7,081 nt of DNA from a virus (IMGVR_UViG_2585427785_000006); one strand, 5' to 3'; shown: positions 1 to 7,081, counted from the first letter of the stretch. Made by a program: numbers and translations. The notes: generated by a model not told the origin, from the sequence alone.

Positions 1-933
1 ATGGACAACGACAAAATTGATCAACACAGCGACGAAATTGAAGTTGAGAGCGAAGAAAAAGAGCGCGGCAAAAAAATAGAAATAGATGAAGACCGACTCC
101 CCTCCCGGGCGATGGCAATTCATGAGCATATCCGCCAGGATGGTGAAAAAGAGCTGGAACGCGACGCAATGGCGCTACTGTGGTCAGCCATTGCGGCGGG
201 TCTGTCGATGGGCGCTTCGTTACTGGCAAAAGGGATATTTCAAGTCGAACTGGAAGGTGTGCCGGGCAGCTTCTTGCTGGAGAATCTCGGTTATACCTTT
301 GGTTTTATTATCGTCATTATGGCCCGCCAGCAATTATTTACCGAAAATACCGTGACTGCGGTACTACCCGTCATGCAAAAACCGACAATGAGCAACGTCG
401 GCTTACTTATACGGTTATGGGGCGTCGTGCTGCTGGGTAATATTCTCGGGACAGGTATTGCGGCGTGGGCATTTGAATATATGCCTATCTTCAATGAAGA
501 AACTCGCGATGCATTTGTCAAAATCGGCATGGATGTGATGAAGAACACCCCCAGCGAGATGTTTGCCAACGCGATCATTTCCGGCTGGCTGATCGCCACT
601 ATGGTTTGGATGTTTCCTGCAGCGGGTGCGGCAAAGATTGTGGTGATTATATTGATGACCTGGCTTATTGCCCTGGGTGACACCACCCATATCGTGGTCG
701 GTTCTGTTGAAATCCTCTATCTGGTGTTTAACGGTACGCTGCACTGGAGCGATTTCATCTGGCCCTTCGCACTACCTACTTTAGCGGGGAACATCTGCGG
801 CGGCACCTTTATCTTCGCGTTAATGAGTCATGCACAGATTCGTAACGACATGAGCAATAAGCGTAAAGCAGAAGCACGCCAAAAAGCAGAACGTGCGGAA
901 AACATTAAGAAAAATTATAAAAACCCGGCATAA
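1..933 (+). CDS. yfdC: Inner membrane protein YfdC, formate/nitrite transporter (FNT) family
   Basis: Full 310-aa ORF from ATG at 1 to TAA at 931-933. The translation matches what I recall of E. coli K-12 YfdC and has a hydrophobic, multi-helix membrane profile. Its position directly upstream of tRNA-Arg argW and intS is the known K-12 arrangement. Confidence 0.9.
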   Translation: MDNDKIDQHSDEIEVESEEKERGKKIEIDEDRLPSRAMAIHEHIRQDGEKELERDAMALLWSAIAAGLSMGASLLAKGIFQVELEGVPGSFLLENLGYTFGFIIVIMARQQLFTENTVTAVLPVMQKPTMSNVGLLIRLWGVVLLGNILGTGIAAWAFEYMPIFNEETRDAFVKIGMDVMKNTPSEMFANAIISGWLIATMVWMFPAAGAAKIVVIILMTWLIALGDTTHIVVGSVEILYLVFNGTLHWSDFIWPFALPTLAGNICGGTFIFALMSHAQIRNDMSNKRKAEARQKAERAENIKKNYKNPA

Positions 934-968
934 ATGGCGAGGGTTTAAGCAATCGAGCGGCAGCGTAC

Positions 969-997
969 TTACCCCGCACTCCATTAGCGGGTATACT
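969..997 (+). promoter_or_regulatory. Putative sigma70 promoter of argW: weak -35 TTACCC (969-974), 17-bp spacer, -10 TATACT (992-997), GC-rich discriminator
   Basis: TATACT lies 11 nt upstream of the mature tRNA 5' end and is followed by a GC-rich stretch (catgccgc) of the kind seen at stringently controlled tRNA promoters. The -35 match is poor (3/6). Confidence 0.35.
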
Positions 998-1008
998 CAT
1001 GCCGCATT

Positions 1009-1083
1009 GTCCTCTTAGTTAAATGGATATAACGAGCCCCTCCTAAGGGCTAATTGCAGGTTCGATTCCTGCAGGGGACACCA
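1009..1083 (+). tRNA. argW: tRNA-Arg, anticodon CCU (reads AGG)
   Basis: 75-nt sequence GTCCTCTTAGTT...GCAGGTTCGATTCCTGCAGGGGACACCA folds as a cloverleaf: 7-bp acceptor stem (GUCCUCU/AGGGGAC), T-arm GCAGG-TTCGATT-CCTGC, anticodon loop CUCCUAA with CCU, encoded 3' CCA. It matches E. coli argW as I recall it and sits in the expected yfdC/intS context. Confidence 0.92.
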
Positions 1084-1178
1084 TTTATCAGTTCGCCCCC
1101 ATCCGTACCAGTCCGCAAAATCCCCTGAATATCAAGCCTTCCGTAGATTCACAGTTCGTCATGGTTCGCGTCAGATCG

Positions 1179-1208
1179 TTGACAGCCGCACTCCATGACG
1201 GGTAAAAA
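1179..1208 (+). promoter_or_regulatory. Putative intS promoter: perfect -35 TTGACA (1179-1184), -10 TAAAAA (1203-1208)
   Basis: Consensus -35 hexamer with an 18-bp spacer to a 4/6 -10 match, about 40 nt upstream of the intS ATG. Sequence-only prediction. Confidence 0.3.
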
Positions 1209-1244
1209 GTGGATAAAATAATTTTACCCACCGGATTTTTACCC

Positions 1245-2402
1245 ATGCTCACCGTTAAGCAGATTGAAGCAGCAAAGCCGAAAGAAAAACCATACCGCCT
1301 ACTCGATGGTAATGGCCTGTACCTTTATGTCCCTGTGTCAGGGAAAAAGGTATGGCAGCTTCGCTACAAGATTGACGGTAAGGAGAAAATCCTGACCGTA
1401 GGAAAATATCCGCTAATGACTTTGCAGGAGGCAAGGGATAAGGCATGGACTGCGAGGAAAGACATCTCGGTTGGCATCGATCCGGTAAAGGCGAAAAAGG
1501 CTTCGTCTAACAACAATTCCTTTAGTGCGATTTACAAGGAATGGTACGAGCACAAGAAGCAAGTATGGTCAGTAGGGTATGCGACTGAACTTGCAAAAAT
1601 GTTTGATGACGACATTTTACCTATCATCGGCGGCCTTGAAATTCAGGATATTGAGCCGATGCAACTGCTGGAAGTAATCCGCAGATTTGAAGATCGCGGT
1701 GCAATGGAGAGAGCAAATAAAGCCCGCAGAAGATGCGGCGAGGTTTTCCGTTACGCTATTGTTACTGGTAGGGCTAAATATAACCCGGCACCTGACCTTG
1801 CTGACGCCATGAAGGGATACCGCAAGAAAAACTTCCCGTTTCTTCCTGCAGACCAGATCCCGGCATTTAACAAAGCACTGGCAACATTTTCAGGAAGCAT
1901 CGTATCGCTCATTGCGACCAAAGTTTTACGCTACACAGCCCTCAGAACAAAAGAGCTTCGTTCCATGCTATGGAAGAACGTCGATTTTGAAAACAGGATT
2001 ATCACCATCGACGCCAATGTGATGAAGGGACGCAAAATTCATGTGGTTCCTATGTCAGACCAGGTAGTTGAACTTCTCACTATGCTAAGCTCAATCACCA
2101 AACCAGTATCAGAGTTTGTTTTTGCCGGGCGCAACGATAAGAAGAAGCCAATTTGCGAGAACGCTGTACTGCTTGTGATCAAACAAATCGGCTATGAAGG
2201 TCTGGAAAGCGGTCACGGATTCAGGCATGAATTCAGCACGATTATGAACGAGCACGAATGGCCTGCCGACGCCATTGAAGTGCAACTTGCACATGCCAAC
2301 GGCGGATCTGTGCGCGGGATTTACAACCATGCACAGTATCTCGATAAGCGCAGAGAAATGATGCAGTGGTGGGCGGACTGGCTTGATGAAAAGGTAGAGT
2401 GA
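1245..2402 (+). CDS. intS: Tyrosine site-specific integrase, P4/CPS-53 (KpLE1) IntS type
   Basis: 385-aa ORF beginning MLTVKQIEAAKPKEKPYRLLDGNGLYLYV, matching E. coli K-12 IntS as I recall it. The C-terminal catalytic region carries tyrosine-recombinase hallmarks (LRTKELR, HGFRHEF, GSVRGIYNH with the nucleophile Tyr). The ORF track extends upstream to a GTG at 1209; I take ATG 1245 as the start by homology. Confidence 0.9.
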   Translation: MLTVKQIEAAKPKEKPYRLLDGNGLYLYVPVSGKKVWQLRYKIDGKEKILTVGKYPLMTLQEARDKAWTARKDISVGIDPVKAKKASSNNNSFSAIYKEWYEHKKQVWSVGYATELAKMFDDDILPIIGGLEIQDIEPMQLLEVIRRFEDRGAMERANKARRRCGEVFRYAIVTGRAKYNPAPDLADAMKGYRKKNFPFLPADQIPAFNKALATFSGSIVSLIATKVLRYTALRTKELRSMLWKNVDFENRIITIDANVMKGRKIHVVPMSDQVVELLTMLSSITKPVSEFVFAGRNDKKKPICENAVLLVIKQIGYEGLESGHGFRHEFSTIMNEHEWPADAIEVQLAHANGGSVRGIYNHAQYLDKRREMMQWWADWLDEKVE

Positions 2403-2622
2403 GCGACCTTAAACTATCGAATAGCACAAAGCCTAGCAATCCAGTACAAAGCTTTGTGTGTCTCAGTTTTGTCTAAGTGTTCTACTAAAACATAGTAAAA
2501 TCGGTAACGGCTGGAAATCATTCAATACTCGCACTATCGGAAGTTCACCAGCCAGCCGCGGTACGTTCTTACATACGATGTACCGCTGTTCTCTTTACGA
2601 TTTATAGCTGTACTGGTGAATT

Positions 2623-2948
2623 ATGAGCAATCTGAATCCATGCATGACGTGTGGTGCCTGTTGTGCATTTTCCGCGTCTCTTTTTACTGGGCAGAAGCTG
2701 ACGATGCTGGCGGAAAGGTTTCGGTCAGTCTCACTGAGCAAATATCTCCTTTTCATCGCTGTATGCGCGGCACCAATCAGAAAAATCCCCGATGTGGCGC
2801 TCTTGCCGGCCCCCCCCGGAGAAAACGCATATTGCTCTGTTTACAAAAACCGTCCACATGCAGGGAATTCGCAATGTCCGGCGAAAATAGCATCGTAAAT
2901 GAAGCATGTAATCGCGCACGGGAAAAATATGGATTTCCAAAAATCTGA
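2623..2948 (+). pseudogene. YkgJ-family (CxxCxxCC putative zinc/iron-chelating domain) protein gene, disrupted by three 1-nt frameshifts
   Basis: The ATG at 2623 is preceded by a GGTGA Shine-Dalgarno and encodes [16 protein letters not shown]. The reading frame must shift -1 at T4 (2668-2671), +1 at C8 (2810-2817) and -1 at A5 (2845-2849) to give a ~109-aa protein: ...[15 protein letters not shown]...[64 protein letters not shown]. The ORF-track entries 2623..2898 and 2616..2948 are the two frames of this one gene. Confidence 0.6.
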
Positions 2949-3060
2949 ATATTCTCCGCCGTGCAAAAATGCGAACAACATCACTTCACTAATCAACCTG
3001 ACATGGCATACTTAGCACGCTAACTATGATAACAAACTAATACCCTAAAACTCATGGTTC

Positions 3061-3087
3061 CGGGACTGGTCGTGGTCCCGTTTTTTT
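3061..3087 (+). terminator. Rho-independent terminator for the YkgJ-like gene
   Basis: 6-bp GC-rich stem CGGGAC/GTCCCG (3061-3066 / 3075-3080), 8-nt loop, then T7 (3081-3087). The reverse complement has no U-tract after the stem, so it is plus-strand specific. Its T-run ends at the stop codon of the convergent J-like ORF. Confidence 0.55.
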
Positions 3088-3089
3088 AT

Positions 3090-4400
3090 TCAGCCAGCAG
3101 GCCATCCAACAACGTAACTGCGGATCGCCTTCAGCTCTGTCAGCGCCTCAACCTCTGCTTTCATCTGCAACTGCCGTGTATTAATCTCCACCCCCTTCGC
3201 AAACATCGCCTGCTCTGTCGCATCCGACAGGGCTATGATGTCTGCCGCCGTCACCGGCACCACATTATTATCCCCGTCGGTCCAAGCAAAACCTTCCGGA
3301 AGACGGTTATTCTCTGCCATCAGGCGTGTCATGCTTATCCTGGACAACGTCTTCTTGCCGTAATCCCAGTTCCTTCCGTTGAATTCCATCATGTATTCCA
3401 TATTCTCCTGCACATCACGCCAGATATTAATCTCTTCCCTTTTCGCCGCTTTTGCCGCTTCCAGTACTGCTTCCGTGGCGACAAAGGCACTCACACTTCC
3501 GTACGTTCCTGCTGTCAGCCCAGACCACAATGCTTTTCCGTGTTCTGTATTATCCGTTTCCGTTGCAGTATACGGCAGCCATACCTGTTCCCCTTTTTCA
3601 TTCCCCGCGTCTTCAAACTGCCCCTCACAGTTTATCCCGCCATATTCGTTGCTGGCTGCATTTCGTACTGCAAGAATCTCTTTTCCCTTATGGTAGTTCA
3701 CCGTCATCTGCTGACCACCAAACTGCTCCGCATCCACCTGCATCCCCACAATGGCCGTGTTCGGGTAGCACTGTTTCACATCGATGATTTCGGTGTATGA
3801 CGACCACAGCGTTCTGTTCTGCAGCTGGTCCGTGGTGCTGTCCGCCGTCTCCCTGACCATCCGGATGTTAAAGGGGCGGGGAGGCAGATTATCCAGAATC
3901 ACCGAGGCCAGGAACTGTGAGGTGGTCTTGCCGTTAATGGTGACATCCTTTTCTGTCACCCAGTTACCGTTACGCTGTAACTGAATCAGCAGACGGACAG
4001 AGGACGGATTACGGTCACCCTTTGACGTGGTCTCCACCAGTGACTGCACCCCGAAGGTCACCCGCAGGCGGTCAATGTTCGCTGACGTAATGGTGCGTGT
4101 TACCGGTTTTGCCCTGGTCACTTCGACACCCAGTACAGTTTCAGAGCCGGAGGACTCAAAGCCTTCCGGTGGTGTCTGCTCCTGCTCCCCGGCACGCCAG
4201 ACCGCGGTCACACCGTGTATCACGGGATTACCGTCCGTGTCCGTCAGCGGGGTTTTGTTCACCAGAATACTCTGCAGGCTTTTCACCGGGCCTTCTATCG
4301 GTCCCTCACCAATCGCATCAATCACGCTCATCATCTGCGTGGATTTGAGATTGTCTTTCGCCTCACGAGGCGTGTGTGCCTTACCGCCACCTTTTCCCAT
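3090..4400 (-). CDS. J: Chimeric/truncated tail tip (host specificity) protein: J-like N-terminal ~243 aa fused to ~190 aa of unassigned sequence
   Basis: 436-aa ORF with a GGAAGG Shine-Dalgarno upstream of ATG 4400. The N-terminus MGKGGGKAHTPREAKDNLKSTQ...FESSGSETVLG...VKQCYPNTA...NYH tracks lambda gpJ residues 1 to ~243. Downstream of about nt 3670 the sequence no longer resembles lambda J, and the ORF stops at 436 aa where J-like proteins run to about 1100 aa. Confidence 0.75.
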   Translation of the reverse strand: MGKGGGKAHTPREAKDNLKSTQMMSVIDAIGEGPIEGPVKSLQSILVNKTPLTDTDGNPVIHGVTAVWRAGEQEQTPPEGFESSGSETVLGVEVTRAKPVTRTITSANIDRLRVTFGVQSLVETTSKGDRNPSSVRLLIQLQRNGNWVTEKDVTINGKTTSQFLASVILDNLPPRPFNIRMVRETADSTTDQLQNRTLWSSYTEIIDVKQCYPNTAIVGMQVDAEQFGGQQMTVNYHKGKEILAVRNAASNEYGGINCEGQFEDAGNEKGEQVWLPYTATETDNTEHGKALWSGLTAGTYGSVSAFVATEAVLEAAKAAKREEINIWRDVQENMEYMMEFNGRNWDYGKKTLSRISMTRLMAENNRLPEGFAWTDGDNNVVPVTAADIIALSDATEQAMFAKGVEINTRQLQMKAEVEALTELKAIRSYVVGWPAG

Positions 4401-4506
4401 ACAGCCTTCCCCTGAATAAATTAACCGCCACTTGCCATTCCGTACAGAAGTCGGATATCCTTCGCCCGAAAAGCATGAAACACATTTCTGCCATGCTAAA
4501 GAGAAA

Positions 4507-4539
4507 CCCCGGTATCAGCAGATACCGGGGTTTTCTTTC
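4507..4539. terminator. Perfect 10-bp hairpin (CCCCGGTATC-agca-GATACCGGGG) flanked by T-rich tracts on both strands; putative bidirectional intrinsic terminator
   Basis: Stem 4507-4516 / 4521-4530 with a 4-nt loop. Followed by TTTTCTTTC on the plus strand and by TTTCTCTTT on the minus strand. Lies in the non-lambda insert between I and J. Confidence 0.5.
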
Positions 4540-4657
4540 ATGCCCACCGATAATCCTGTTGGTTAAAACCGGTAATGGCATAAAAATTCTGAATATCTTC
4601 ACATTTTCACAAACTGACCGTGGCGCGTATAATTTTTCTGCGTTTATTTTTTTTTTG

Positions 4658-4666
4658 TGATATAAA
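4658..4666 (+). promoter_or_regulatory. Candidate extended -10 element (TGaTATAAA) preceded by a T10 tract (4647-4656)
   Basis: TG at 4658-4659 sits one nt upstream of TATAAA (4661-4666), with an AT-rich UP-like region upstream. A second TATAAT is at 4628-4633. No convincing -35 for either. A start here would give a short plus-strand transcript ending at the 4699-4737 terminator. Confidence 0.3.
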
Positions 4667-4698
4667 AATAATTTCTTTCACTTAATCTTTCTTAACTC

Positions 4699-4737
4699 TC
4701 CCGCAGTTCCTGTCCGCGATCACTGCGGGATTTTTTT
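4699..4737 (+). terminator. Strong plus-strand rho-independent terminator
   Basis: 9-bp stem TCCCGCAGT/ACTGCGGGA (4699-4707 / 4722-4730), 14-nt loop, then T7 (4731-4737). The reverse complement is followed by GAGTTAAG, which is not U-rich, so it is unidirectional. It ends 8 nt from the stop of the convergent I gene. Confidence 0.6.
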
Positions 4738-4744
4738 ATTCTTT

Positions 4745-5410
4745 TTACCCCTGCCGCCCGATAACCACGACCTTTCCGCCCCCGCCTTCATCACGGGTGC
4801 TGATGTCCTGGGATATACGGCGGGAGCCAACCAGCATTTCCCCGTAAGGCACCGGCATCGGGTTCCCCTGGGCAATCATGTTATCCAGCGAGGAAAAGTA
4901 CGTGTTCTGTCTGCCGTTATCCGTTGCGCGGTAATCCGGTGTTTTTGCCTTCGGGGCCAGCATCTGGGCCACACCGCCCAGTATCATGCTGGCACCCAGT
5001 GAAAACAGCATCGTGGTGGCAGAAAAACCACCGGCACTCAGGGCTGTACCCCATAACGCCATCGAGCCTCCGGCCGTGAAGAAAGAGCCCACGATGGCTG
5101 CCGCCCCCAACACAATCTGCAGTCCACCCTTTCCGGCCCCGGCCAGTCGCGGCACAATGTGGATGACCGTTCCCTCACCCAGCTGTTCGTGAAGGCGGGC
5201 GTACACCACCTCCGGTGCCGTGTCTTCACCGGCAATACGTATCTGGTACCAGCCTTCGTTCATCTGAAGGCGAAAGCCCGGCATCTGCATCGACAGGGCG
5301 CGAATGGCTTCCGCTGCCGTGTTCACATACAGGCTGAGGCGGCGGCCAAATCGTTGTAAATCCCCGTGGTTGCCCACGGTTGAGCCAGAGATAACAGCTT
5401 CCACCATCAT
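4745..5410 (-). CDS. I: Tail assembly protein I-like, N-terminally truncated (homology from about nt 5365 downward)
   Basis: From GDLQRFGRR onward the translation tracks lambda gpI, including the Gly/Ala-rich hydrophobic segment and C-terminal ...NTYFSSLDNM.AQGN...YGEM.VGSR..SQ.IST.DEGGGG.VVVIGR. The first ~15 codons of the ORF (MMVEAVISGSTVGNH) are out-of-frame FII sequence, so the natural I start is missing. Confidence 0.75.
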   Translation of the reverse strand: MMVEAVISGSTVGNHGDLQRFGRRLSLYVNTAAEAIRALSMQMPGFRLQMNEGWYQIRIAGEDTAPEVVYARLHEQLGEGTVIHIVPRLAGAGKGGLQIVLGAAAIVGSFFTAGGSMALWGTALSAGGFSATTMLFSLGASMILGGVAQMLAPKAKTPDYRATDNGRQNTYFSSLDNMIAQGNPMPVPYGEMLVGSRRISQDISTRDEGGGGKVVVIGRQG

Positions 5411-5696
5411 CCGGCGAAACCCGGTCTATCCAGAAGTTTTCCTCACCGATGGTCAGCGTGTCTCCACGCCGCAGTTGCCGCACATCATCAGTCCGGACAA
5501 ACAGGGACGGGCTGGAGCCTTCAACGCGCACGCCCTGTCCGGCATAGCTGATATTTTCAGGGTCATCAAAAACACCACGTATTACTGCGCCGGACTGCTC
5601 ACCGGATGTCATGGTGGCTGACGTTCCCATGTACCCGCGTATCGTTTCATCGGCGCGGGCAATGGCAGCATCGAACAGGTTATCGAAATCAGCCAC
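5226..5696 (-). CDS. FII: Head-tail joining protein FII-like, lacking its last ~9 codons, with read-through extension into the I fragment
   Basis: MADFDNLFDAAIARADETIRGYMGTSAT...TLTIGEENFW.DRVSPDDGGSC.LWL.RG matches lambda gpFII residues 1 to ~108 (nt 5373-5696). The remaining 48 codons (QPRGFTTIWPPP...) are the I region read in another frame. Confidence 0.8.
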   Translation of the reverse strand: MADFDNLFDAAIARADETIRGYMGTSATMTSGEQSGAVIRGVFDDPENISYAGQGVRVEGSSPSLFVRTDDVRQLRRGDTLTIGEENFWIDRVSPDDGGSCYLWLNRGQPRGFTTIWPPPQPVCEHGSGSHSRPVDADAGLSPSDERRLVPDTYCR

Positions 5697-5707
5697 AGCG
5701 CCTCCCG

Positions 5708-6103
5708 TTATTGCATTCTGGCCAGGCCGCGCTCTGTCATTTCAGCTGCCACACCGGCAGAGACACGGAACGCCGTTCCCGGCAGCACAAATGCCACAGT
5801 GTCATCCCGCGTGGCGTGAAGTGCATCAGTATGCAGCGTCACCAGTGCCACGACCGTGACCAGAGCAGCCGTATCAATCACGGTATCCGGCTGCGCTGAT
5901 ACCACCTCATTTTCATGTCCGGTCAGCGCATTTTCCGGGCTGACAGATGTGTCCTGACCGGCAGCGTCATCCGTGTCATCAAGCTCCTCTTCCAGCTCTG
6001 CCACACGGAGCACCAGTTCTTCTTTCGTCCCCGTCAGGCTGACATCACGGTTCAGTTGCTCACCCAGCACCTGAAGACGGGCAATCAGTTCATCTTTCGT
6101 CAT
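5708..6103 (-). CDS. FI: Head assembly/DNA-packaging protein FI-like (intact, 132 aa)
   Basis: ATG at 6103 is preceded by a GGAGG Shine-Dalgarno. MTKDELIARL...LTGTKEEL.LRVAEL.EELDDTD...LTGHENEV.SAQPDTVI...HTDALHATRD..VAFVLPGTAFRVSAGVAAEMTERGLARMQ is close to lambda gpFI over its whole length. The ORF-track extension to 6142 is upstream read-through. Confidence 0.85.
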   Translation of the reverse strand: MTKDELIARLQVLGEQLNRDVSLTGTKEELVLRVAELEEELDDTDDAAGQDTSVSPENALTGHENEVVSAQPDTVIDTAALVTVVALVTLHTDALHATRDDTVAFVLPGTAFRVSAGVAAEMTERGLARMQ

Positions 6104-6114
6104 GGACTCCTCCA

Positions 6115-6142
6115 CAGAGAGAAAATGGCCCCGAAGGGCCAT
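6115..6142 (-). terminator. Hairpin with UUCG loop plus U-tract between the E fragment and FI (putative attenuator/terminator)
   Basis: On the minus strand: AUGGCCC-UUCG-GGGCCAU (7-bp stem, plus-strand 6125-6142) followed by UUUUCUCUCU, starting 2 nt after the TAA of the upstream ORF and just before the FI Shine-Dalgarno. Confidence 0.45.
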
Positions 6143-6144
6143 GA

Positions 6145-6561
6145 TTACGCCAGTTGTACGGACACGAACGCATCAGGATCAGCCAGCAGCATCAGCGGTG
6201 CTGACTGAATCATGGTGAACTCACGCGCCGGATCGCCGGTGGTCACCCAGTTTTTCGGGTAGCGGGCAGAGGCGTTAATACCTTCGCGCTGTGCGTCCGC
6301 ATCCTGAATGCAGCCATAACCAACACGGGCAGACTTCACCACATTCACCTCACGGATGTAGTCGCTGCCCATCGCATTCATGATGGCCCGCTGAAAGGGC
6401 AGTGTTTCCCAGCGCCCTTCCTGGTATGCGGATTCTTTCGGGAGATAGTAATTGGCATCCGCCCATTCAACGGCGGTCTGTGGCTCCGGCCTGAACAGTG
6501 AGCGAAGCCCGGCGCGGACAAAATGCCGCAGCCTGTTAACCTGACTGTTCGATATATTCAC
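6145..6561 (-). CDS. In-frame fusion ORF: terminase large subunit A residues 1-82 joined to the C-terminal ~56 residues of major capsid protein E
   Basis: GTG start at 6561 overlaps the Nu1 3' end by 26 nt, as in lambda. MNISNSQVNRLRHFVRAGLRSLFRPEPQTAVEWADANYYLPKESAYQEGRWETLPFQRAIMNAMGSDYIREVNVVKSARVGY is the gpA N-terminus. It is followed in frame by GCIQDADAQREGINASARYPKNWVTTGDPAREFTMIQSAPLMLLADPD.FVSVQLA, the gpE C-terminus. Junction at nt 6313-6318. Confidence 0.8.
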   Translation of the reverse strand: MNISNSQVNRLRHFVRAGLRSLFRPEPQTAVEWADANYYLPKESAYQEGRWETLPFQRAIMNAMGSDYIREVNVVKSARVGYGCIQDADAQREGINASARYPKNWVTTGDPAREFTMIQSAPLMLLADPDAFVSVQLA

Positions 6562-7081
6562 TCAGCAACCCCGGTATCAGTTCATCCAGCGCGGCTGCTT
6601 TGTTCATGGCTTTGATGATATCCCGTTTCAGGAAATCAACATGTCGGTTTTCCAGTTCCGGAAAACGCCGCTGCACCGACAGGGGGATCCCGTCGAGAAT
6701 ACTGGCAATTTCACCTGCGATCCGCGACAACACGAAAGTACAGAATGCGGTTTCCACCACTTCAGCGGAGTCTCTGGCATTCTTCAGTTCCTGTGCGTCG
6801 GCCTGCGCACGCGTAAGTCGATGGCGTTCGTACTCAATAGTCCCTGGCTGGAGATCTGCCTCGCTGGCCTGCCGCAGTTCTTCAACCTCCCGGCGCAGCT
6901 TTTCGTTCTCAATTTCAGCATCCCTTTCGGCATACCATTTTATGACGGCGGCAGAGTCATAAAGCACCTCATTACCCTTGCCACCGCCTCGCAGAACGGG
7001 CATTCCCTGTTCCTGCCAGTTCTGAATGGTACGGATACTCGCACCGAAAATGTCAGCCAGCTGCTTTTTGTTGACTTCCAT
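6536..7081 (-). CDS. nu1: Terminase small subunit Nu1 (intact, 181 aa)
   Basis: The ATG is at the window edge (7081). MEVNKKQLADIFGASIRTIQNWQEQGMPVLRGGGKGNEVLYDSAAVIKWYAERDAEIENEKLRREVEELRQ...SEYIEQSG is essentially identical to lambda Nu1 over its full length, including the N-terminal winged-HTH region. Confidence 0.92.
   Translation of the reverse strand: MEVNKKQLADIFGASIRTIQNWQEQGMPVLRGGGKGNEVLYDSAAVIKWYAERDAEIENEKLRREVEELRQASEADLQPGTIEYERHRLTRAQADAQELKNARDSAEVVETAFCTFVLSRIAGEIASILDGIPLSVQRRFPELENRHVDFLKRDIIKAMNKAAALDELIPGLLSEYIEQSG

Follow-up and report, generated by a model that had tools for sequence, protein, structure and literature searches.

The K-12 defective prophages DLP12 and Qin, in their nohD and nohA regions, are lambdoid, lie beside a chromosomal att site and keep an intact Nu1 homologue (nohD, nohA) together with cos. 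DLP12 retains R, Rz, cos, nu1 and part of A with 98% identity to lambda (PMC3945230). The lambdoid Sp prophages of O157 Sakai carry multiple defects in morphogenesis and packaging genes, deletions included; other prophages still complement them and recombine with them (PMC2669165). Here we describe an element beside argW in a stretch of 7,081 nt (the window) that is, with high probability, a defective lambda-like prophage remnant of E. coli 4-203-08-type strains, whose left end lies within the window. About 80% of its late (head and tail) region has been lost through three clean internal deletions, leaving whole and truncated genes colinear. The remnant is genomic debris of an ordinary kind, real rather than artefactual.

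Organization of the argW-adjacent element

The features of the element are as follows, with the evidence for each.

1009-1083, plus strand: tRNA-Arg (CCT), argW, with attL, the chromosomal attachment side (ARAGORN; Rfam tRNA, 63 bits)
1245-2402, plus strand: intS-type tyrosine integrase, apparently intact, 385 aa in annotated relatives (Pfam Arm-DNA-bind_3, Phage_int_M, Phage_integrase)
2403-2622: non-coding DNA joining the integrase module to the right-end module of the prophage (sequence matches)
2623-2952, plus strand: YkgJ-family cysteine-cluster pseudogene (aligns to the intact 109-aa YkgJ of prophages L013 and L015)
3090-3691, minus strand: 3' part (about codons 24-223) of a DUF4376 tail-fibre-region gene (Pfam DUF4376, E=5e-16)
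3689-3691: junction 3, J to the DUF4376 gene, microhomology TAT, 3 nt (both flanking alignments include these bases)
3689-4400, minus strand: J (tail tip) codons 1-237 (78.5% to lambda J; Pfam FNIII-A_GpJ, E=1e-40)
4401-4744: native I-J intergenic spacer, a moron slot (one alignment piece with I and J)
4745-5326, minus strand: I (tail assembly protein), complete at 193 aa (190/193 identical to L015 I; Pfam Lambda_tail_I)
5323-5368, minus strand: last 46 nt of K (C40 peptidase) (block ends at L015 9034; K annotated at L015 8989-9732)
5366-5368: junction 2, FII to K, microhomology GTG, 3 nt (alignment to L015)
5366-5696, minus strand: FII (head-tail joining) codons 1-110 of 117 (Pfam Phage_attach; L015 alignment)
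5708-6103, minus strand: FI (DNA-packaging chaperone), full length, 131 aa (Pfam Packaging_FI, E=4e-49, whole profile; compared with lambda and L015 FI)
6145-6318, minus strand: last 57 codons and stop of E (major capsid protein) (Pfam Phage_cap_E, profile positions 275-328 of 329)
6316-6318: junction 1, A to E, microhomology ATA, 3 nt (alignment to L015)
6316-6561, minus strand: A (large terminase) codons 1-82 (99.3% to lambda 711-956; weak GpA_ATPase match)
6536-7081, minus strand: Nu1 (small terminase), full length, 181 aa (Pfam Phage_Nu1, E=9e-101; 180/181 identical to L015)

The prophage boundary is set by argW and intS at 1009-2402, where an att site is followed by a phage integrase with all of its integrase domains. 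A tRNA-Arg is annotated beside intS in related E. coli loci, other E. coli likewise have lambdoid prophages at argW, and the intS DNA, for which an alternative GTG start is possible at 1209, is 96-98% identical to the annotated intS of many E. coli. The tRNA was the sole match in an Rfam scan of the window. Past intS, window 2403-2581 continues the match to the region downstream of intS in MLI023K1, and window 2495-2607 is 99% identical to the TOE17 prophage end, just past a DinI-like gene; phage-derived DNA begins at about 2495-2623, further left than position 3090, where a first-pass annotation of this DNA had begun its phage module.

On the minus strand the retained pieces read Nu1, A (codons 1-82) fused to E (last 57 codons), FI, FII (codons 1-110) fused to K (last 46 nt), I, the spacer, and J (codons 1-237) fused to the DUF4376 gene, beyond which lie the frameshifted YkgJ gene and then intS and argW. 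The window ends at the start codon of Nu1, and cosB-like sequence follows in the loci L004-L006; the right-hand part of the element lies past both the window and the contigs. The colinearity with lambda proposed in the first-pass annotation is borne out by four minus-strand BLASTN blocks, namely window 6316-7081 with lambda 191-956 (Nu1 and A codons 1-82; 99.3%), 5383-6318 with lambda 6987-7925 (the 3' end of E, FI and most of FII; 95.1%), 4755-5367 with lambda 14831-15440 (I; 70%) and 3704-4400 with lambda 15505-16201 (the start of J; 78.5%). Pfam assignments agree (Phage_Nu1, Packaging_FI, Phage_attach, Lambda_tail_I), and they place GpA_ATPase and Phage_cap_E inside a single 138-aa ORF, and FNIII-A_GpJ and DUF4376 inside a single 436-aa ORF.

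A closer reference than lambda is L015, a near-intact potB prophage of E. coli S1-CAM-01-A (NZ_CP145714.1, 2728148-2750328), which holds every retained segment of window 2623-7081. It aligns to the window in four colinear blocks in the same order and orientation, at 95.5, 96.8, 96.7 and 99.2% identity, separated by gaps of 4723, 6966 and 6029 bp, so that the window shows exactly three deletions against it. Given these block identities, and a best relative that differs from block to block, L015 is not the true parent. The same comparison bears on the refuting condition set in the first-pass annotation, an intact phage with this compact gene set, and favours the deletion reading: the intact relative L015 has the full set.

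The losses fall on essential virion genes. A ends after codon 82, only 57 codons of E remain, and W, B, C/Nu3 and D are missing; among the tail genes, Z through L are missing and J ends after codon 237. The remnant would be unable to make heads or tails.

Junctions and the deletions behind them

In each of the three junctions there are exactly 3 nt that fit both flanks, and all three positions agree with those of the first-pass annotation to within a few bases or, at most, a few tens of bases. At the A/E junction (6316-6318), the predicted jump from A codon 82 to roughly the last 56 codons of E holds, with the last 57 codons of E kept. The deletion measures 6029 bp against L015, removing the rest of A, W, B, C/Nu3, D and most of E, and its product is an in-frame fusion ORF of 138 aa (6145-6561). 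Nu1 and FI on its two sides are full length, as had been noted.

The FII/K junction (5366-5368) had been read as a jump from FII codon ~108 to I codon ~17. The FII side stands, at codon 110; on the other side the break falls 46 nt before the K stop, outside I as annotated in this lineage, and I, rather than being truncated, is complete. This deletion, of 6966 bp against L015, took the end of FII, Z, U, V, G, T, H, M, L and most of K, and the fusion is out of frame. A 14-nt 'filler' that appeared here with lambda, CUPS03 and L013 as references was rejected and the junction is clean, because FII alleles 100% identical to window 5366-5435 occur in S1-CAM-01-A and others.

Sequence 4401-4744, earlier taken for an insert between I and J, is instead the native spacer, contiguous with both genes in the intact prophages L013 and L015, and likewise in records of phages including vB_EcoS-569R3 and PPompW. 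In TOE17, sodC sits at this spacer position.

At the third junction (3689-3691) a passage from about J codon 243 into unassigned sequence had been proposed; the junction is real, at J codon 237, and the sequence beyond it can be assigned to the DUF4376 gene and then the YkgJ pseudogene, the normal right end of such prophages. J' is 96.8-98.9% identical to J of L015, L013 and L007, and the DUF4376 part is 95.5-96.4% identical to L015 2031-2632 and to L013. The deletion of 4723 bp against L015 removed the rest of J, lom, the stf N-terminal gene and the start of the DUF4376 gene, and produced an in-frame J'::DUF4376 fusion ORF of 436 aa (3090-4400). The DUF4376/YkgJ part was identified through E. 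coli prophages rather than a phage collection, where a DNA search gave best listed matches that all fell on window 2478-2712, beside dinI at prophage ends. Decay is seen outside the junctions as well: YkgJ has at least three reading-frame switches, with four gap openings in its L015 alignment block.

Under random joining, a shared stretch of at least 3 nt has a probability of 0.051 per junction and 1.3e-4 for all three. A repeat search of the window found no IS elements and no long direct repeats able to mediate homologous deletion. The earlier reading of deletional decay is upheld: L015 carries all segments in order at 95.5-99.2% identity, and the window differs by three deletions with 3-nt microhomologies. 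We propose an ancestor of the form attL(argW)-intS-YkgJ-DUF4376-stf-lom-J-I-K-L...Z-FII-FI-E-D-C-B-W-A-Nu1-cos, from which three RecA-independent, microhomology-mediated deletions (4.7, 7.0 and 6.0 kb) would have taken about 17.7 of the roughly 22.2 kb of late region, by illegitimate recombination through replication slippage or end-joining at 3-nt repeats, with small frameshifts additionally inactivating YkgJ. This molecular mechanism, like the order and timing of the deletions, is one that we infer. Most likely, the whole Nu1, FI and I ORFs and the two in-frame fusions survive just because the breakpoints missed those genes.

Occurrence in other assemblies and alternative explanations

The structure recurs outside the window. 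JOQI01000019 (L005) is 100% identical to it and JOQQ01000022 (L004) 99.7% identical (19 differences), both with all three junctions, and an unrelated ENA metagenome scaffold carries the A/E and FII/K junctions at 99.3% (12 differences); the source names are E. coli 4-203-08_S3_C1, S4_C2 and S4_C3. By contrast, none of 5,426 complete E. coli genomes contains any of the three junctions, each searched separately with a 121-nt probe, and in none of them does any place cover at least 80% of the whole window or of window 2403-7081. The fusion proteins are essentially unique among some 15 billion proteins, in clusters of one or two members. The structure is limited to a single rare lineage.

The first-pass annotation had offered a chimeric assembly as its alternative, in which a short-read assembler jumps between the lambdoid prophages of one genome and creates false junctions. 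Repeated lambdoid sequence does interrupt these assemblies, with host contigs ending 40-120 nt past Nu1 within the cosB region, and the NCBI genomes are short-read drafts from a single study. An artefact would be expected in one assembly only, or with a long repeat at the junction, and neither is found here. The same junctions occur in several assemblies whose copies differ by point substitutions, both between the two NCBI assemblies and in the metagenome scaffold; the 3 nt shared at each junction are far shorter than any assembler k-mer; and a collapsed repeat would place its join within a long shared stretch and would not link genes as unrelated as A and E. We regard a chimera as extremely improbable. 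It is also improbable, if less so, that the FII/K junction arose by illegitimate recombination between prophages, so that a lambda-type head module became attached to a tail-tip module from a second resident prophage of the PPompW/potB type. Nu1 to FII are 95-99% identical to lambda and K-I-J merely 70-78%, and the K-I-J part is 98% identical to L013, a prophage with HK97-type head genes; however, L015 alone already joins lambda-type Nu1-FII to the K-I-J-DUF4376-YkgJ end, with order and orientation unchanged, so a simple internal deletion suffices, and a join of two prophages would usually be expected to rearrange the chromosome.

Internal deletion leaves the number of events to be considered. 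The first-pass annotation called the decay stepwise; the deletions hold, but the steps are something we infer, because no intermediate with one or two junctions occurs among the 5,426 complete genomes. A single bout of breakage with rejoining guided by microhomology, or a series of template switches, could instead have removed all three segments at once, and the identical microhomology length at all three junctions, the missing intermediates and the near-uniqueness of the fusion proteins would fit such an event. Yet the missing intermediates carry little weight, since sampling of the lineage is very thin, at three isolates that share the label 4-203-08 and one metagenome; single deletions of like type occur alone in other strains, and 3-nt microhomology is common in spontaneous deletions. 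A single complex event is therefore possible but unlikely.

The surviving ORFs raise the question of retained function, in which Nu1 (with cosB), FI, I, intS and the two in-frame fusions would have been kept as a domesticated mini-module acting on incoming lambda-type phages, whether by serving as a decoy for packaging, by interfering with it, or by giving helper phages a cos-bearing island to package. In its favour, Nu1, FI, I and intS have all stayed intact, the reading frame is preserved across two of the three junctions, Nu1 is whole in every decayed relative examined, and the nu1 of DLP12 works once recombined into lambda (PMC3945230). Across the three copies, synonymous to nonsynonymous substitutions number 10:2 in Nu1 and FI against 0:3 in the truncated FII', a weak hint that the intact ORFs are perhaps not entirely neutral and, were domestication true, a sign of real constraint. 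But these are very small counts, which gene conversion with functional prophage copies as donors would explain; chance alone would put two or more of three junctions in frame in 26% of cases; the query that retrieved the relatives itself contained Nu1, so that their intact Nu1 reflects ascertainment bias; and the module, unlike a conserved satellite, occurs in one rare lineage and has no satellite-type replication or regulation genes in the window. We consider domestication very unlikely. A phage satellite (PICI, cf-PICI or P4-like) was rejected on the zero count in complete genomes, the small protein clusters and the lack of replication or regulatory genes in the window, and is further opposed by the 95-99% identity of the pieces to ordinary prophage genes.

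Deletional decay of a resident prophage is accordingly the reading that we retain. Its value is as a base-resolved example of lambdoid prophage erosion, by three multi-kb deletions at 3-nt microhomologies and small frameshifts, with a near-intact reference available, and extends little beyond bookkeeping. Annotations in these genomes of a 138-aa 'terminase' and a 436-aa 'TipJ' describe fusions created by deletion rather than genuine genes. The stretches with 95-99% identity to lambda-type phages could serve as partners for recombination with an infecting phage, as the analogy with DLP12 suggests (PMC3945230).

Comparison with other prophages

Phage lambda (NC_001416) shares the gene order Nu1-A-...-E-FI-FII-...-I-J with the remnant but has I and J just 70% and 78% identical to it, lacks DUF4376, YkgJ and the 344-bp I-J spacer at the corresponding places, and integrates at attB (gal-bio) with a different integrase. 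L015 differs in having its late region complete from Nu1 to YkgJ, at about 22.2 kb, with a frameshift in C as its single annotated defect there, and in residing at potB rather than argW.

Other E. coli prophages have undergone independent deletions of like type, with other breakpoints and overlaps of 3-10 nt: lambda 904 to 6317 in MEI1O2-23, 2327 to 6576 in CUPS03, 1240 to 4728 in FCI54, and both 1944 to 6683 and 8067 to 19585 at the Qin site of strain 1303. The argW prophage itself has decayed otherwise in MLI023K1, in 3PT, where intS' is fused to A', and in STECUZB006. The late regions of the Sakai Sp prophages are mostly far less reduced than that of the remnant.

The remnant is the same class of object as DLP12 and Qin, in which large internal deletions likewise took most of the head and tail genes. 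It differs from them in its integration site (argW with intS) and its breakpoints, and in keeping more fragments (E', FI, FII', K', I, J' and DUF4376) together with two in-frame fusion ORFs; a direct analogue of its gene string is the Qin-site prophage of strain 1303, which reads A'::'E-FI-FII-Z'::stf.

A lambdoid late region reduced by three deletions

The element starts at argW and intS rather than at 3090, where the module described in the first-pass annotation begins. The left end of the window comprises:

1-933, plus strand: yfdC
1009-1083, plus strand: argW, tRNA-Arg(CCT)
1245-2402, plus strand: intS-type tyrosine integrase, all integrase domains present

From around 2500 rightwards, the window is filled by lambdoid late-region DNA on the minus strand. 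Alignment to phage lambda (BLASTN) returned four minus-strand blocks in lambda order: window 6316-7081 matches lambda 191-956 (Nu1 and A codons 1-82; 99.3%), 5383-6318 matches 6987-7925 (end of E, FI and most of FII; 95.1%), 4755-5367 matches 14831-15440 (I; 70%) and 3704-4400 matches 15505-16201 (start of J; 78.5%). Pfam searches matched both parts of each of two fusion open reading frames, GpA_ATPase with the last 54 positions of Phage_cap_E in one of 138 amino acids, and the J FNIII-A domain with DUF4376 in one of 436. Together, these results bear out, far beyond chance, the initial description of a colinear string of lambda gene fragments.

A closer reference was located with a probe across the FII/K junction, which identified FII alleles 100% identical to window 5366-5435, one of them belonging to a near-complete prophage inserted at potB of E. 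coli S1-CAM-01-A (NZ_CP145714.1; L015). Its gene order is Nu1, A, W, B, C (frameshifted), D, E, FI, FII, Z, U, V, G, T, H, M, L, K, I, spacer, J, lom, stf N-terminal gene, DUF4376 gene and YkgJ. The window aligns to L015 in four colinear blocks (2623-3691 to L015 1559-2632, 95.5%; 3689-5368 to 7356-9034, 96.8%; 5366-6318 to 16001-16944, 96.7%; 6316-7081 to 22974-23739, 99.2%), separated by gaps of 4723, 6966 and 6029 bp, such that about 17.7 kb of a late region of about 22.2 kb has been lost. The four blocks and three deletions support the proposed reading of the remnant as a product of deletional decay.

Junction sequences and the origin of the deletions

At each junction the neighbouring blocks share exactly three bases (TAT at 3689-3691, GTG at 5366-5368 and ATA at 6316-6318). 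Under random joining, an overlap of at least three bases has a chance of 5.1% per junction and of about 1.3e-4 for all three, from which we infer that the deletions formed at short microhomologies. In E. coli, such microhomologies typically mark RecA-independent illegitimate recombination, which probably produced the deletions here; neither long direct repeats nor IS elements were found beside the three junctions. A codons 1-82 are joined in frame to the final 57 codons of E, and J codons 1-237 in frame to the DUF4376 gene from about codon 24 on, while FII codons 1-110 are followed, out of frame, by the terminal 46 nt of K; at least two of three junctions would be in frame by chance in 26% of cases. 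The middle junction had been thought to break inside I on its tail side, yet the break is at the 3′ end of K, and I is complete (193 amino acids, 190 of them identical in L015).

The exact 138-residue fusion protein of A and E is encoded by a handful of contigs, the NCBI source genomes being E. coli 4-203-08_S3_C1, S4_C2 and S4_C3. The window is 100% identical to JOQI01000019 (GCA_000714015.1) and 99.7% identical to JOQQ01000022 (GCA_000714175.1; 19 differing positions), and an ENA metagenome scaffold corresponds to window 5314-7081 at 99.3% (12 differing positions). These copies share every junction that they cover, all three in the two draft assemblies and two in the scaffold. A chimeric assembly, the alternative raised initially, is rejected because the junctions recur in two drafts and, for two of the three, in an unrelated metagenome scaffold, in copies that differ by substitutions, with only 3 nt of common sequence at each junction. 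Contigs JOQQ01000022 (1-121) and JOQI01000019 (1-39) end inside a cosB-like region, 40-120 nt upstream of Nu1, and the former shows several odd differences there; the scaffold (1-171) holds the equivalent of lambda 19-190. These contig ends and differences probably reflect collapsed repeats of several lambdoid prophages.

A search for intermediate deletion states found none among 5426 complete E. coli genomes, none of which contains any of the three junctions, and the fusion proteins are essentially unique among about 15 billion proteins. The deletions may have arisen stepwise; that a single complex event made all three seems improbable to us.

The I-J spacer and the right end

The segment at 4401-4744, initially taken for an insertion, is the native I-J spacer, continuous with I and J in phage vB_EcoS-569R3, in PPompW phages and in two intact prophages (L015 and L013, which has HK97-type head genes). 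TOE17 carries sodC at the same slot, which marks it as a moron site. The spacer is AT-rich, with a near-consensus sigma-70-like promoter predicted at 4604-4633 and a terminator-like hairpin at 4713-4729, both on the plus strand; of the 19 positions at which JOQQ01000022 departs from the window, 9 cluster at 4636-4692 within it. The spacer may represent a moron remnant or a small transcript.

The sequence beyond the truncated J, previously left unassigned, is the usual right-hand end of these prophages, a DUF4376 gene followed by YkgJ. The latter, a YkgJ-family cysteine-cluster gene (2623-2952), is a pseudogene with at least three frameshifts; it is also frameshifted in TOE17 and intact (109 amino acids) in L015, L013 and a further comparison locus, L007. 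In the DUF4376 part, the window and JOQQ01000022 differ at 3604, 3622 and 3190, all A/C changes on the plus strand. At two of these sites, the only two covered by the L015 comparison, the window has Gly and both JOQQ01000022 and L015 have Val. The three differences may be draft sequencing errors or recent mutations.

Function and relation to other defective prophages

The remnant is most likely without function. On the head side it has lost the portal, the protease and the decoration protein along with most of the capsid gene; on the tail side, all of the shaft and most of J. Its YkgJ is decaying. Across three copies (window 5366-7081 versus JOQQ01000022 and the scaffold), the intact Nu1 and FI carry 10 synonymous and 2 nonsynonymous substitutions and the truncated FII 0 and 3, a contrast in tiny numbers that is the only, small, hint to the contrary and that gene conversion from functional prophage copies could equally explain. 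By analogy with DLP12, whose nu1, R and Rz are functional once recombined into lambda (PMC3945230), the stretches of the remnant that resemble lambda could recombine with infecting phages.

In other E. coli, argW is occupied by lambdoid prophages in the same orientation, each differently decayed. MLI023K1 has intS, an acetyltransferase gene, tfa and a tail-fibre gene, itself truncated, that borders directly on Nu1 (9432-9459); in 3PT, a truncated intS is joined to a truncated A (5750-5794), with Nu1 next; and STECUZB006 has intS, effector genes and tail-fibre fragments, then the Q-to-early region. The 3PT and MLI023K1 structures represent other ways in which lambdoid prophages at argW have decayed. 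Independent deletions that begin within A and finish within E or C, with their own breakpoints and overlaps of 3-10 nt, occur in four further strains, all with Nu1 whole.

Independent head-region deletions in other prophages (lambda coordinates)
MEI1O2-23: 904 to 6317, overlap 3 nt
CUPS03: 2327 to 6576, overlap 9 nt
1303, Qin site: 1944 to 6683, overlap 3 nt
1303, Qin site: 8067 to 19585, overlap 7 nt
FCI54: 1240 to 4728, overlap 10 nt

The frequency of such deletions cannot be judged because the search joins nearby query pieces; as the query also contained Nu1, their recurrence may be ascertainment bias only.

The window, which stops short of the far boundary, shows every defining feature of a defective prophage that can be tested within it: an integrase beside an att site, homology that is colinear with functional phages, and the loss of essential genes. 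It has the features neither of a phage satellite nor of an assembly artefact. The remnant belongs with the defective prophages DLP12 and Qin of K-12 and with the defective lambdoid prophages known from O157 Sakai (PMC3945230, PMC2669165), as an ordinary member, though one not previously described, of a well-known class.
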